Below, piece by piece: positions 2,631 through 64,000 of a DNA stretch of 64,000 nucleotides. The position numbers were made by a program, and so were the translations under genes. The stretch comes from Octopus vulgaris (Eukaryota). The DNA is taken from positions 25,172,001 to 25,236,000 of the forward strand of contig OX597836.1 in the NCBI GenBank assembly GCA_951406725.2, given 5' to 3'. Positions within the stretch are counted from its first letter, which is position 1. Each line of letters begins with the position of its first letter. The notes below the pieces were generated by a model that did not search any database, had not been told where the DNA came from, and saw only the letters and a list, made by a program, of their open reading frames with translations.

Positions 2631-2675
2631 GACCTCTGATGAGAATTCAATAAGATTTGAAAATTGATTAAGGTC
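2631..2675 (+). ncRNA. Minimal type I hammerhead ribozyme motif, canonical core
   Basis: GACCT-CTGATGA-GAATT(caataa)GATTT-GAAA-ATTGAT-TA^AGGTC. Helix I GACCT/AGGTC is perfect, the core CUGAUGA...GAAA...UH is intact, and helix III is near-palindromic. Confidence 0.65.
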
Positions 2676-3140
2676 GTTTGTTTTTTTTTTTCAATCTACA
2701 GCGAAACAACTTAATTAGCCATGTTTATATCGTTACTCTACAGTCTACAGACACACACACATGCACCCACTGCTGAACCCATGACAACCTGGAAAATGGA
2801 TGCTCTGTGTGTGTGTGAAAGAGAGAGAGAGAGAGAGAACATGAGGAGTTTATTTCATTGATGATCTAGACCCCATAGGTACACTGAGTATAAGTTCTAG
2901 AATCGGTCATCCGTTAGGTTCCAAGTTCACAGTTGAGGCTGGAGCTAGGGATCCATAGTAGGCTTCCGAGTCAGCAGGTATTAGTAGTAGTACCCTTACC
3001 GCCATATATATATATTTATAATGTCAATAACGATATGAAGATTTTTCTCATCCATAGATTTTACTTAACAGCTATTTAGAACATATTCTCCAGACATGCA
3101 CATGTTTCAACTGCTGTGATATAAAAGATATAACTATATC

Positions 3141-3660
3141 TTGGTATCTCTAAGACCGATCTATATCAGCCAATTGGTATGTTTATCTAAGGCCTGTCTC
3201 TTTCTCTCTCTCTCTGTCAGTTGGTATATCTAAGACCTGTCTCTGTCAGTTGGTATATCTAAGACCTGTCTCTGTTAGTTGGTGTATCTAAGACCTGTCT
3301 CTGTCAGTTGGTGTATCTAAGACCTGTCTCTGTCAGTTAGTTGGTATATCTAAGACCTGTCTCTGTCAGTTGGTGTATCTAAGACCTGTCTCTGTCAGTT
3401 GGTACATCTAAGATCTGTCTCTGTCATTTGGTGTATCTAAGACCTGTCTCTGTCATTTGGTGTATCTAAGACCTGTCTCTGTCATTTGGTGTATCTAAGA
3501 CCTGTCTCTGTCAGTTGGTGTATCTAAGACCTGTCTCTGTCAGTTGGTATATCTAAGACCTGTCTCTGTCAGTTGGTATATCTAAGACCTGTCTCTGTCA
3601 GTTAGTTGGTATATCTAAGACCTGTCTCTGTCAGTTAGTTGATATATCTAAGACCTGTCT
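3141..3660. repeat. 29-bp minisatellite (GTTGGTRTATCTAAGACCTGTCTCTGTCA), about 15 good copies plus degenerate leading copies
   Basis: Contiguous units without spacers; some carry a 4-bp GTTA duplication. Confidence 0.95.
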
Positions 3661-5595
3661 ATTATGAAGAATTTTCTCTCTGACCCAATGCCAAAACAGT
3701 GCTGGGATGGAATGGTGTTGTCTGCAGACGGTATCATGATGAGTCCATATTGGTTCTGGCATGATATTAACTCAAGTGTGAGCGGATGGGAACTGAAAAT
3801 GATGGCATTTGGCAGAGAAATTAACAGTTTCTACTCTTCTTTTGCCTGTTCAACAATAACAAAAACAATAATGGCTTTGTTTGATTCTTCACTTGACATT
3901 TAATGGTAAGAAGGGAAAAAGAGAGAGAAGGAGAGAGGAAGGAATTCAGCTGGTGTGAAGGGCTTTATTTTTATGTTAAAGGTTCTACTGAAGTTAACTA
4001 CTATTTGACAAGGCTACATTTCAAATAAATAAATAAATAAGATAAAAATGAACTAAAAAAAATCTGCTAAACTCATTATTTTATAAAATAAAAGAAAAAA
4101 GGGTGGAATTTTGGAACAAACATTCCCACTTTGACTTAAACAAGTTTTTGTGAGGTTTTGGGGAAAATTTCTTTGTTTCAATGTTTTAAACAATTGCAAC
4201 TGTAACAAGATATGTTGTTTAACGCCTTGTTTGTAATTAATTACAAATGTAGATAAACATAAATCAGTGGTTCTAAAATTAGTTGTAAAGCTAGATTTTT
4301 AATAAAATTAACAGAAATATATTCCAGTTTCACCATTTTCCTGCTCATATTGTACTTCTTTCAGAATACTGCACTTAACCCTTCATCAACCTATGTGGCT
4401 GTAACACTGCAGTTTCCTCACCTCTGAACTAGGACAACACGGTTACTGAGTATCTAATATGAGAGAATAAGAAAACCTATAATCCCCCATACAATATCTG
4501 AATGCACACTGACAGTGTTGTACTCTGGAGTTATTGGGTATTTCAGGTTTTACAACCTCACCCTCATCCAGACAACTTGACCTAGGTTGATCAAGTCTGA
4601 GTCCAAATAACATTCTTCTTACCCTGCCAGCCAACTCTTTTTAGCCATGTTCTTGATGGCTCATCTTTTTGCTCCTCATTCCTGTAATGCCCACAGCTTC
4701 TTAGGTCTTACTCAAAATACAACTTGTGTATCCGTGACCACTCAGAACTCAGAGAACTTGATAAAAAACATCGATAAGAAACTTCACTCAGATGTAGAAT
4801 TTATGACTGAGCATCTTATATTGGCGTTTACTACAGCTTGTATATAATCAGCCATGCTTTGACTGAATATAACAGCCAAATCTTTTCTTTCAACAAACCC
4901 CCTACCCTCCCTGAAATGAGGGCCATATGTTTATATATATATATATATATATATATATATATATATATATATATATATATATGGTGAAGCTTAGACAGTA
5001 GTAGTAACAGCAATATAATAATAATGATGATAATAATAATAATAATAATAATAATAATAATAATATTCTGACCTCCCTCTTACACCCATATAAAATTAAA
5101 ACAGGATGGTCACAGTCAGAAACTAATCATCAAATGTTTCTTTTGATCTGCACACTAACCCCTGCCTATACCTCCTGTGTATTACGGCAGATTTGACTGG
5201 GGTTGTTAGGAAAAGGGGTTACCAGACAACAACAACAACAACAACAGCAGCAGCAGTAATAAGTAAAATAACATCCTAAGCTACACATGTTTATTCCAAA
5301 ATAGAATTTATAAAAGCTTTAAAGAAAAAAGTACCGAAAGTTAATCATTTCCTGATATTTGTATAGGGCCTCAAAAAATTTAGTGGTGGGTATAAAGGTT
5401 GATATAGACCCACAGTATGTGACTGGTATTGTGGTCCCATATAGAGGATGCGATAGACCGGTCATGGGCCAACTGCAACCCATGGGATTTTCTGAATGGC
5501 ATACCTAGTGAAAAATTAGCTGGAATTTTTATAGTAGTTTGGCCTGTCTGGTGATGAGCCATTTCTCATGTGGCCCTTCTTGGAAAAAATTATTC

Positions 5596-61964: not shown

Positions 61965-61985
61965 ACTGCCTGCATTTGTACACAT
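61965..61985 (+). CDS. Candidate 21-nt microexon ((R)LPAFVH)
   Basis: CTGAC branch site and TGC upstream of caacag acceptor, CAT|gtaagt donor, symmetric phase 2-2 matching the upstream exon, no stop. Confidence 0.6.
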
Positions 61986-63573
61986 GTAAGTACTTTGTGG
62001 CTCCCCGGTTTCTTATTCTTTATATATTCTGCATGACACATTGGCACTTTCCTTGCAGATTCCTGAGATTATCAATGTTTTGTTTTTAACCATTATCATT
62101 GTTATTGTTGTTGTTTTTATTATTATTATTCTCATTAATATTAATTAATCATCTCTTAAATTTTTTCACTCACCATTTGTTATTTTCTTTTTTCCATCAA
62201 ATGCAGAAGCGTAGCAGCGTGGGTATTGAGGCAAGGAGAGGCATTTGCTCATTCCTGGCTGTTTGCATTAAAGGGAGCACCAATCCCCTTTCTTTCTTTC
62301 TTTTTTCTTTTTTACTTGTTTCAGTCATTTGACTGCGGCCATGCTGGAGCACCGCCTTTAGTCGAGCAGATCGACCCCGGCACTTATTCTTTGTAAGCCC
62401 AGTACTTATTCTATCGGTCTCTTTTTGCTGAACCGCTAAGTGACGGGGACATAAACACACCAGCATCGGTTGTCAAGCAATGCTAGGAGAACAAACACAG
62501 ACACACAAACATATACACACACATACATATATATATATATATATATACATATATACGACGGGCTTCTTTCAGTTTCCGTCTACCAAATCCACTCACAAGG
62601 CATTGGTCGGCCCGGGGCTATAGCAGAAGACACTTGCCCAAGGTGCCACGCAGTGGGACTGAACCCGGAACCATGTGGTTGGTAAGCAAGCTACTTACCA
62701 CACAGCCACTCCTGCACCTTCTTGACTTTTCATACCTAATAATTAAGGTGGGGGGGGCCACCAAAAGGATTGTTTGTTTTCCCTGCCTTCTGGTGCCAAG
62801 AACCCTTGCTACGCTCCTGCATCAACACCAATTAAAAAAAGAAAATGAAAACAATTTCCAATCGTTATACTTTTGCTGTTGTCACATGACATGAATTGTC
62901 TCCCTTGTGATTGTTACCTCCCCTTTTCATATTCTTAATTTAGAAAAGCTTCATAGACGTAGTGAGAGACGCTGCTGTTCTTGATATTGCTGCCCCCTCA
63001 TATTTATTTTTGTTTTTTTTTTCTTGTTTTATTTCTTCCCTTTTTGAACTGCATGATTTGATTGGTTTTATCACACGTTTCTTTCCCTACATTTGCCATG
63101 TAGACAAAATATTTACTTTCCAGCTACATAACACCCAGGATATTCCCACTGCAGAATCTTTGACTGTAATATCTCTGGTTGGAATTTAAGCGTGGAATTC
63201 CATGGACAGCACACACACTTGTGTTTAACATCACTGATTCAGAGACACATTACTGAATCGAAACAGAATCTTAGTCTATTGATAAAATATAGATTGACAA
63301 AAATAAATACCTGATTGAAATTGTATCGAGACGTTGATGTGCTTGGCTAAAATCCCTTAAAATGCTACCCTAGTTAGGTCACAGTCATATGACTGAAACA
63401 AGTGAAAGAGTATCCGTAATTTATTCACACGTTTATGCATATGTACATATGATGTATACCTAATATTGTACATGCAGAAGTGCAGTATTGAGCACTCATT
63501 TTCAATCTTTAACATTTATGTATATATGTATATATATATATATATATATATATATATATATATATATATATAA

Positions 63574-64000
63574 AATAGTAAAAAGTGAAAAACTACAGAA
63601 GGCTTAAAGGTTAAAATATATATATTTGCGTCAATATGTCTGAAGAATATTAAAAAATTTTTTCTTACAATGACATAATTTAGAAGAAAGACCGGTTTCG
63701 CGTTTAGCTTTTCAAATTTCTTGCGACGTTATGTTTATCTTGAACAGAGTTATCAGATAACAGATAACTCTGTTCAAGATAACAGAGTTATCAGATAACA
63801 GAGTTATCAGATAACAGATAACTCTGTTCAAGATAAACATAACGTCGCAAGAAATTTGAAAAGCTAAACGCGAAACCGGTCTTTCTTCTAAATTATGTCA
63901 TTGTAATAAAAAAATTTTTAATATTCTTCAGACATATTGACGCAAATATATATATTTTTTAACCTTTAAGCCTTCTGTAGTTTTTTCACTTTTTACTATT
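63574..64000. repeat. Near-perfect palindrome next to (TA)n, running to the window end; Penelope-like
   Basis: AATAGTAAAAAGTGAAAAACTAC... pairs with ...GTAGTTTTTTCACTTTTTACTATT. The centre is built of reiterated CAGAGTTATC/AGATAAC pieces. Confidence 0.88.
63849..63887 (+). ncRNA. Hammerhead-like motif with U3-A8 core pair (identical - strand copy at 63684-63722)
   Basis: AAGAAA-t-TTGAAAA-GC(taaac)GC-GAAAC-CG-GTC^TTTCTT. GAAACCGGTC is typical of Penelope-associated minimal hammerheads. Confidence 0.55.

Follow-up and report, generated by a model that had tools for sequence, protein, structure and literature searches.

Minimal type I hammerhead ribozymes (min-HHR) have been described in the pseudo-LTRs of metazoan Penelope-like elements (PLEs), including a U3-A8 variant in Schistosoma and, in the Penelope element of D. 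virilis, a helix I of 2 bp (Cervera and de la Pena 2014, PMC4209133). In the survey of natural hammerhead core variants by Perreault et al. (2011, PMC3088659), as far as its text is drawn on here, covariation of the 3-8 pair runs from C3-G8 to U3-A8 only. PLE hammerheads, opposite-strand pairs and the U3-A8 state are already published (PMC4209133, PMC3088659). More recently, PAc, the Poseidon element of Anolis, has been described as combining a hammerhead with internal initiation of reverse transcription (Frangieh et al. 2024, PMC11167929). The metazoan non-LTR retrozymes form a further group, described as PLE-derived (Cervera and de la Pena 2020, PMC7229834; Li et al. 2026, bioRxiv 10.64898/2026.07.22.740005).

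Here we present five loci with hammerhead-shaped motifs from the window, the whole 64,000-nt stretch of Octopus vulgaris DNA that was analysed (Table 1). It is probable, in our judgement, that the five motifs derive from the termini of three PLE and two retrozyme-like families inserted in introns of neurabin-1, with folds that likely serve the RNA of the elements and probably do nothing in the host pre-mRNA.

Table 1. Hammerhead motifs, their parent repeats and the host gene in the window
Feature	Position	Strand	Remarks
Type I hammerhead motif, C3-G8	2631..2675	+	helices I and II 5 bp each; helix III palindromic
Fragment of old ~300-nt circularly permuted (retrozyme-like) repeat	2632-2761		carries the 2636 motif
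Neurabin-1, 11 coding exons (aa 854-1379 of P0125)	8920..60223	+	
Head-to-head inverted pair, short terminal pieces of G3-C8 PLE family	38996..39305	.	arms 38996-39093 and 39105-39202, 96% complementary; right arm continues to family 3' end
Mirror copy of G3-C8 motif	39035..39085	-	G3 at 39078
Hammerhead motif, G3-C8 core	39113..39163	+	G3 at 39120; predicted cut after 39156; additional G behind A9; helix III AAUAUU
Inverted pair, terminal pieces of older PLE family (kin of G3-C8 family)	43357..43730	.	
Decayed hammerheads, U3.G8	43544, 43436	+, -	within 43357..43730
Inverted pair of ~350-nt circularly permuted (retrozyme-like) unit	48886..49526	.	
Decayed C3-G8 hammerheads	49325, 49149	+, -	within 48886..49526
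Inverted pair, 3' ends of Neptune-like PLE	63613..64000	.	arms 63613-63774 and 63797-63958 (96%); continues beyond window end
Weak hammerhead motif, U3-A8	63849..63887	+	U3 at 63856; mirror copy 63715(-); bulged helix I (1-nt bulge needed); helix II 2 bp; helix III ACCGGU

A first-pass annotation had named the heptamers CTGATGA (2636, 49.1-49.3 kb), GTGAACA (39120), TTGAAGA (43544) and TTGAAAA (63856), all of which were found in place (those at 49.1-49.3 kb at 49325(+) and 49149(-)), and had read the loci as five sequence-unrelated examples of one architecture. Using a type I descriptor (core N3 U4 G5 A6 N7 N8 A9 ... G12 A13 A14 A15.1, U16.1 H17, with 3-8 paired) that admitted every pairing 3-8 combination, we obtained 5 matches at 3 loci (2636; 39120 and 39078(-); 63856 and 63715(-)); 60 local dinucleotide shuffles of the window gave a mean of 0.08 matches, and none of the 60 reached 5. 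The copies 43544/43436 and 49325/49149 miss the descriptor, each having a broken helix I or III. What remains at 43544 and at 49.1-49.3 kb has decayed, although the fold is visible in the alignments of their families. The five loci are also not independent, since the ORFs of the 39120 and 43544 families share 41% identity across 259 aa and their hammerhead regions align too. Each of the five motifs belongs to a high-copy repeat family, and a paired 3-8 core is present in the majority of members of all five. The helices can form in the 2636 and 39120 families, helices I and III can form also in the 49-kb family, and weak helices are found at 63856 (helix II, bulge) and in the 43544 family (3-bp helix I). 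An Rfam scan of the window at E<=5 gave no hammerhead family among the matches listed (150 of 153), a blank that was not weighed against the motifs because minimal hammerheads are poorly modelled there.

When positions 3 and 8 were left free in a scan of a 1.2-Mb genome sample, a Watson-Crick 3-8 pair was found in 14 of 17 matches (3 C-G, 4 G-C and 7 U-A), and we therefore regard the covariation as real; shuffles of the sample yielded 3.2 matches in all, and 8 of 9 multi-member clusters carried a Watson-Crick 3-8 pair. The covariation lies between families, in three Watson-Crick states. The earlier proposal that the 3-8 pair co-varies is upheld to that extent, as is the warning that CUGANGA-only searches would miss families. 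Its fourth state, U3.G8, dissolved into a minority (19/100) of the 43544 family, the majority of which is U3-A8 and in which G8 occurs overall in 24/100; a reading of U3.G8 as a private mutation (2/25 loci) was dropped on the strength of this larger set. Between families, compared without statistics, the helices differ in sequence yet still pair, and helix II shows a two-sided change between the G3-C8 family and its sister family (C-G vs U-A). Helix covariation, which the first-pass annotation had put forward as a check, did not rise above shuffles within the 2636 family (172/500).

The expectation of several PLE- or retrozyme-like families with minimal type I hammerheads and linked GIY-YIG/RT ORFs was borne out by three ORF-linked families and two families of permuted units. 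As judged from sequence, the motifs at 39120, 43544 and 63856 are ends of EN+ PLEs with a single ORF encoding RT with, at its C terminus, a GIY-YIG domain. In the G3-C8 family the GIY-YIG match (1.8e-05) is above the cutoff, and an open frame of 1025 codons carries YVDD. Pfam RVT_1 did not match this ORF itself; the RT call draws on motifs, on alignment of its RT region to an RVT_1-positive ORF at 2e-09 and on the name that UniRef gives to a homologue with 54% identity. None of 5 long copies retained an intact complete ORF, and a PDB sequence search with the ORF gave no match. ORF remnants were present at 12/25 loci of the 43544 family. For the 63856 family, the U3-A8 family ORF at locus L156 matched RVT_1 at 5.5e-08 and shares its family with the ORF that lies upstream of the 63856 motif; its linker matches, by eye, the Neptune rows of the published alignment, a clade marked by CX2-5CxxC and a long spacer before GIY-YIG. 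The EN linker of the 39120 and 43544 families resembles Nematis/PNL2 rows, where CX2-5CxxC goes with a short spacer, but their RT4 motif is unlike that of the nematode rows; after comparison with the published alignment the Nematis label was dropped.

The two C3-G8 families (2636; 49.1-49.3 kb) had no PLE ORF beside them in 1.5-kb flanks (0/25 and 0/20 loci). Circular-permutation offsets were 340-350 nt in 97/107 matches of the ~350-nt unit and 300-310 nt in 26/42 of the ~300-nt unit. Their non-coding units, within the 150-450 nt of non-LTR retrozymes, type I hammerheads and more-than-unit copies would place both among the retrozymes.

The G3-C8 core is fixed in one young PLE family, occurring in 91/100 (the first 100 of 6,731 family matches; 1 in the control), and since it is known from this one family it counts as a single event. 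The full pseudo-LTR layout (partial tandem, inverted 5'-truncated copy, tail) was demonstrated for the G3-C8 family alone; one locus, L316, is arranged as pseudo-LTR/ORF/pseudo-LTR with direct motifs 4261 nt apart, plus an inverted truncated copy. Six further copies, scattered over the genome sequence, are 100% identical to the 39120 copy over 98 nt, which makes it a recent insertion. A coding role for the motif was discarded, because a 1-nt indel in loop II separates subfamilies and because the ORF begins downstream. Flanks are TA-rich. Numbered from G3, with the predicted cut site at +36, 25 of 27 3' ends fall at +123-131 or +180-186, giving two classes ~55-60 nt apart. No 5' end among 35 extends upstream of -27, and 14 lie within -27 to -19; short copies begin ~21 nt upstream of G3, frequently with an added G (non-template G ahead of AG in 11/20 rows; p=3.5e-4 vs 19%). 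At the predicted cut there is no pile-up of 5' ends, with 0/35 exactly at +37 and at most 2 allowing microhomology.

This start point, together with the frequent added G, suggests uncut capped templates; the G could instead close a first exon that is very short and spliced, as the upstream sequence also resembles a 3' splice site. Short G3-C8 copies would then be reverse transcripts of uncut capped RNAs, with reverse transcription initiating at internal points, ~125 or ~185 nt downstream of G3, in the way shown for the anole PLE in vitro, and the inverted arm would arise during insertion and bury the core. Dimer folds were more stable than monomer folds in 4 of 5 families, the exception being the 43544 family, where the dimer was no better; across the families folded, the hammerhead was never the minimum-energy dimer fold. 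Cutting is predicted to occur only in dimers or with the aid of an element protein, and the 3-8 pair may have been held by selection while parent elements were active, shifting from C-G to U-A and G-C between lineages.

Each of the five loci falls in an intron of neurabin-1, a gene on the + strand, with a sense-strand motif at each, in keeping with the earlier placement in a synaptic scaffold gene; the gene reaches beyond both ends of its exon span. No meaning of that position is supported, as the loci are ordinary insertions: the same families supply 21 loci in the 1.2-Mb sample. Long inverted repeats with one motif per strand, for most loci unmentioned in the first-pass annotation, occur at 4/5 loci, and the hairpins predicted there (from -128 to -336 kcal/mol, with the core paired at ~1.0) would bury the core in neurabin pre-mRNA at these four, which makes a host role unlikely. 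At their present sites, the modelled folds indicate, the motifs are probably inactive in host pre-mRNA, and they have little bearing on neurabin regulation.

It might be argued that such matches arise by chance in repeats rich in AT or in the hairpins of DNA transposons, given that the helices at 63856 and 43544 are weak and that a look-alike, GTGATGA...GAAA, sits in a hairpin at 15851-16372 with weak likeness to mariner transposase coding sequence (E=0.13). With its G3.G8, that look-alike does not satisfy the descriptor, the motifs occupy the PLE terminal position, a known hammerhead site, and the window shuffles (0.08 matches vs 5), the 1.2-Mb scan and the 3-8 pairs of the clusters largely refute the idea, which we consider negligible in probability. 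Scarcely more credible is co-option of one or more intronic copies to cut or regulate neurabin pre-mRNA. Sense-strand motifs at all five intronic loci, 5 loci where 1.1 are expected per 64 kb, and the 2636 copy, which lies outside any hairpin, would speak for it, but the 5 vs 1.1 comparison is post hoc, its queries being the window's own copies; moreover, long hairpins bury four of the loci, decay has affected two, helix III needs a partner in all, and 39120 is a recent insertion.

A more serious alternative, which we nevertheless think unlikely, is that the G3-C8 motif is a catalytically dead relic on a successful element, its pairing coincidental or kept for promoter function or protein binding. 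Hammerhead mutants of the anole PLE insert normally in vitro, no reads begin at the cut site there, and the engineered C3G/G8C change rescues only in part (PMC11167929); most G3-C8 copies keep the whole uncut motif (27/35 begin at or upstream of +4), and both direct routes to G-C, from C-G or U-A, pass through mismatches. On the other side, the remaining core letters, G10.1-C11.1, the base added behind A9 and the palindrome of helix III are all kept, the helix II change against the sister family is two-sided, and positions 3 and 8 form a Watson-Crick pair in each clear multi-copy family, though the descriptor used for that scan made no such demand. Beside our preferred reading of the five loci as element termini stands a bolder one, which we think as unlikely as the relic: that a young PLE family on the scale of ~10,000 copies has a working G3-C8 hammerhead, and its sister a U3-A8 one with a U3.G8 subfamily; that the ribozyme lies ~20-60 nt behind the mRNA cap, where cutting removes the cap and the template of thousands of short solo copies; and that it acts as a slow switch, gated by protein or by dimer formation and with the 3-8 pair as its tuning element. 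If true, the G-C state would complete the natural covariation series of the hammerhead 3-8 pair, in the literature covered otherwise found only as an engineered partial rescue. CUGANGA/UUGANAA descriptors would undercount ribozymes by thousands per genome, the related family pair with G-C, U-A and U.G cores would offer a ready test of the cutting that a PLE needs, and a fixed 5' end with an added G would give solo pseudo-LTRs a simple origin.

Compared with described min-HHR PLEs, the octopus motifs share type I topology, a short palindromic helix III, one additional base between 9 and 10.1, G10.1-C11.1, a multitude of families in each genome, copies that are mostly solo, and opposite-strand pairs 100-700 bp apart; the supplement consensus of that study is CUGANGAH, and in the portions of PMC4209133 covered we found neither G3-C8 in the text nor a cephalopod passage. 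The four G3-C8 heptamers were absent from 11 supplement files of PMC3088659, and literature and supplement searches of incomplete coverage, outside which cases may exist, found no natural G3-C8. The 2636 and 49.1-49.3 kb families fit the published account of retrozymes in their unit length, hammerhead type and permuted copies; unlike tandem retrozymes, their window copies are one fragment and one inverted pair. The G3-C8 family resembles PAc, as far as described (PMC11167929), in a hammerhead close to where the ORF starts, 3' ends of two classes (tail), AT-rich targets and a template RNA that is uncut in PAc and probably so in the octopus; it differs in the spacing of the two 3' ends (~55-60 nt, against 30-40 in PAc) and in an ORF that starts downstream of the motif. 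In PAc, G3-C8 was engineered, and the C3G/G8C double mutant is partly active; in the octopus it is the state of a whole family of putative ribozymes, likely a natural form of a variant otherwise lab-made.

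The 3-8 pair of the active-site core is kept between families of minimal type I hammerheads, as the sequence comparisons indicate. When positions 3 and 8 were left unconstrained in a descriptor run on a 1.2-Mb genome sample (120 evenly spaced stretches), 14 of 17 matches were Watson-Crick (3 C-G, 4 G-C, 7 U-A, 0 A-U), against an average of 3.2 matches, 0.8 of them Watson-Crick, in five shuffles; a second descriptor setting gave 20/25. Across 318 loci, most members were Watson-Crick in all but one of nine multi-member clusters (4 U-A, 3 C-G, 1 G-C), the G-C state coming from one family. 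The co-variation proposed in the first-pass annotation thus holds between families; inside the 2636 family, helix covariation did not exceed shuffles (172/500; 16/20 loci aligned), as expected of old and decaying copies. Core columns were better conserved than others in three alignments of copies selected by similarity (230/240 vs 1651/1770; 185/190 vs 1115/1313; 238/240 vs 1696/1800).

Re-reading of the window (G000:C23:25172001-25236000 of the 2.8-Gb genome) reproduced the earlier heptamer coordinates. Octopus proteins annotated as neurabin-1 match the exon at 14.5 kb with 100% identity, and the span of 11 exons of this protein makes all five loci intronic. Using a type I descriptor with a palindromic helix III, open to 1-nt insertions and to every 3-8 combination that can pair, we found 5 matches spread over 3 loci; the mean in 60 local dinucleotide shuffles was 0.08, with none reaching 5, so the motifs exceed chance, answering the shuffle check raised in the earlier reading. 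The 43.5-kb and 49-kb copies fail the descriptor through damage to helix I or III, and no hammerhead appeared among the 150 of 153 Rfam matches listed for the window. At four of the five loci the motif occurs on both strands, within a long inverted repeat whose arms measure 85-200 nt and are 86-96% complementary.

Every locus belongs to a repeat family: genome searches returned 913, 1640, 2198, 1162 and 480 first-look candidates (40 scored and 20-30 retrieved per search), and the 1.2-Mb sample held 21 loci of the five families. The window has 5 loci against 1.1 expected, a comparison biased by the use of its own copies as queries.

Coordinates of features (window positions unless a genomic stretch is named)
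Feature	Position	Description
2636 locus	2636	Retrozyme-like
39120 locus	39120	End of a Penelope-like element (PLE)
43544 locus	43544	PLE end
49-kb locus	49.1-49.3 kb	Retrozyme-like
63856 locus	63856	PLE end
Neurabin-1 exons	8920-60223, + strand	11 exons, aa 854-1379 of 1886
Hairpin	15851-16372	252-nt arms, 94%; arm resembles decayed mariner transposase C-terminus (SETMAR match, E=0.13); its G3.G8 hammerhead look-alike is rejected by the descriptor and serves as a false-positive example
Neurabin intron	38879-39435	~555 nt, more than half occupied by the G3-C8 hairpin; near-perfect dsRNA, which in a cephalopod could plausibly undergo A-to-I editing
tRNA-like match	41902-41973	Weak Rfam match, 25.9 bits (gathering 29); possibly a SINE head
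G3-C8 PLE spacer	L158 6570-7640	~1.1 kb, (CATA)n/(CA)n-rich, stop codon to hammerhead
G3-C8 tandem array	L013 850-1900 (G000:C28:24094041-24097138)	~166-nt units, one of them internally deleted
Tandem repeat	L181 6900-8700 (G000:C1:192000001-192010000)	Young, ~362 nt, plus inverted copy; candidate U3-A8 retrozyme whose hammerhead has a 6-bp helix I and a 4-bp helix II
Two further U3-A8 families	L021 542 and 902, L140, L296, L069, L138	Well-formed helices; absent from window

The 39120 family carries the G3-C8 core. A pattern with positions 3 and 8 free had 6,731 exact genome matches (control pattern, 1); 91 of the first 100 were G3-C8 and the other nine single changes, with C-G or U-A in none. 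In longer copies, which share 95-98% identity, a 1.1-kb microsatellite-rich spacer connects the motif to an ORF with YVDD and GIY-YIG that starts within the tail, downstream of the motif. The linked ORF sought by the first reading is therefore present: the GIY-YIG profile matched above cutoff (1.8e-05), and the RT region aligns to an RVT_1-positive ORF (2e-09), the RVT_1 profile itself giving no match. In one stretch (L316) two motifs separated by 4261 nt flank the ORF, and the stretch also holds a truncated copy in inverted orientation. All five long copies lacked an intact full-length ORF; L314 has an open frame of 1025 codons without its start. In L013, six G3-C8 cores lie in tandem ~166-nt units; this retrozyme-like array derives from a PLE end and would offer a dimer substrate of natural origin.

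The 43544 family has ORF remnants in 12/25 loci, 41% identical over 259 aa to the 39120-family ORF, and the hammerhead regions of the two align, helix II differing by a two-sided change; the loci are thus not all sequence-unrelated, contrary to the first reading. Its spacer resembles that of the G3-C8 PLE, and its helix I is 3 bp. Nor is U3.G8 the family core state: the first 100 of 317 pattern matches comprised 70 U-A, 19 U.G, 5 C.A, 3 C-G, 2 G.G and 1 U.U. Position 8 was G in 24% of these sequences and position 3 was changed in 10%, which points to a U3.G8 subfamily. The 63856 family is U3-A8 in all 25 aligned copies, with a weak fold (helix II 2 bp, helix I bulged).

The 2636 and 49-kb families, both C3-G8, had no PLE ORF in 1.5-kb flanks (0/20 and 0/25 loci). 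Sequence lying 3' of the motif in one copy reappears 5' of it in another, shifted by 300-310 nt (26/42 matches) and 340-350 nt (97/107), respectively, indicating permuted, more-than-unit copies as in non-LTR retrozymes (available text of PMC7229834; bioRxiv 10.64898/2026.07.22.740005). Several Penelope/retrozyme-like families are accordingly present, as first read.

A role for the motifs in neurabin processing appears unlikely from these models: in the sense RNA, four hairpins (-128 to -336 kcal/mol) are predicted to pair the core almost fully to the antisense arm, the 39120 copy shares 98 identical nt with six other dispersed copies, and the 2636 copy stands alone, lacking a partner and having an alternative fold that competes.

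Overall, this is real, mostly known biology. PLE minimal hammerheads, opposite-strand pairs and U3-A8 are published (PMC4209133; PMC3088659, available text), and so are PLE insertions at (TA)n that are inverted or carry a tail (PMC8557442). G3-C8 was met only as a mutant made in the laboratory, with partial activity (PMC11167929, available text; PMC8495972; PMC3884650); our literature search, which covered part of the relevant papers, found no natural example, and the natural variant is probably unreported.

Predicted folds put a stable helix III out of reach for monomers. Strand-swapped dimers were more stable in 4/5 families (e.g. L156, -27.2 vs 2 x -7.9 kcal/mol), which fits the dimer model for minimal hammerheads (available text of PMC4209133; review PMC6765202); the dimer hammerhead fold was never the minimum-energy fold in any family, and in the 43544 family the dimer was no better than the monomer.

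In 35 G3-C8 copies selected only by their tail, no sequence extended 5' of -27 (from G3); 14 started at -27 to -19, 27 started no later than +4, and a start exactly at the predicted cut was absent. Genome counts agree with this 5' limit: an upstream pattern in the spelling of one subfamily matched 504 times, a tail pattern 7,501 times. The AG preceding the ATGCAG start was kept in 20 of 34 junction rows (two insertions counted twice, both without the G), and in 11 of these 20 a G stood at a position that is C or T in the template (p=3.5e-4 against 19%). Retroelement RTs can copy the cap, and transcription may start near -21, the RNA cap being copied into the short copies. Alternatively, the G before AG would be the last base of a very short first exon joined by splicing; a resemblance to a 3' splice site is also seen in the bases upstream, and in Penelope an intron ends at helix I (available text of PMC4209133).

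Whether a copied cap or a short exon accounts for the G, the ends of this family are a testable clue to the origin of short copies. The 3' ends fell at +123-131 or +180-186 in 25/27 copies and, in another 30, at +112-128 (11) or +178-186 (19), well away from the predicted cleavage site (+36); they match internal RT initiation on uncut RNA, as in the anole PLE (available text of PMC11167929).
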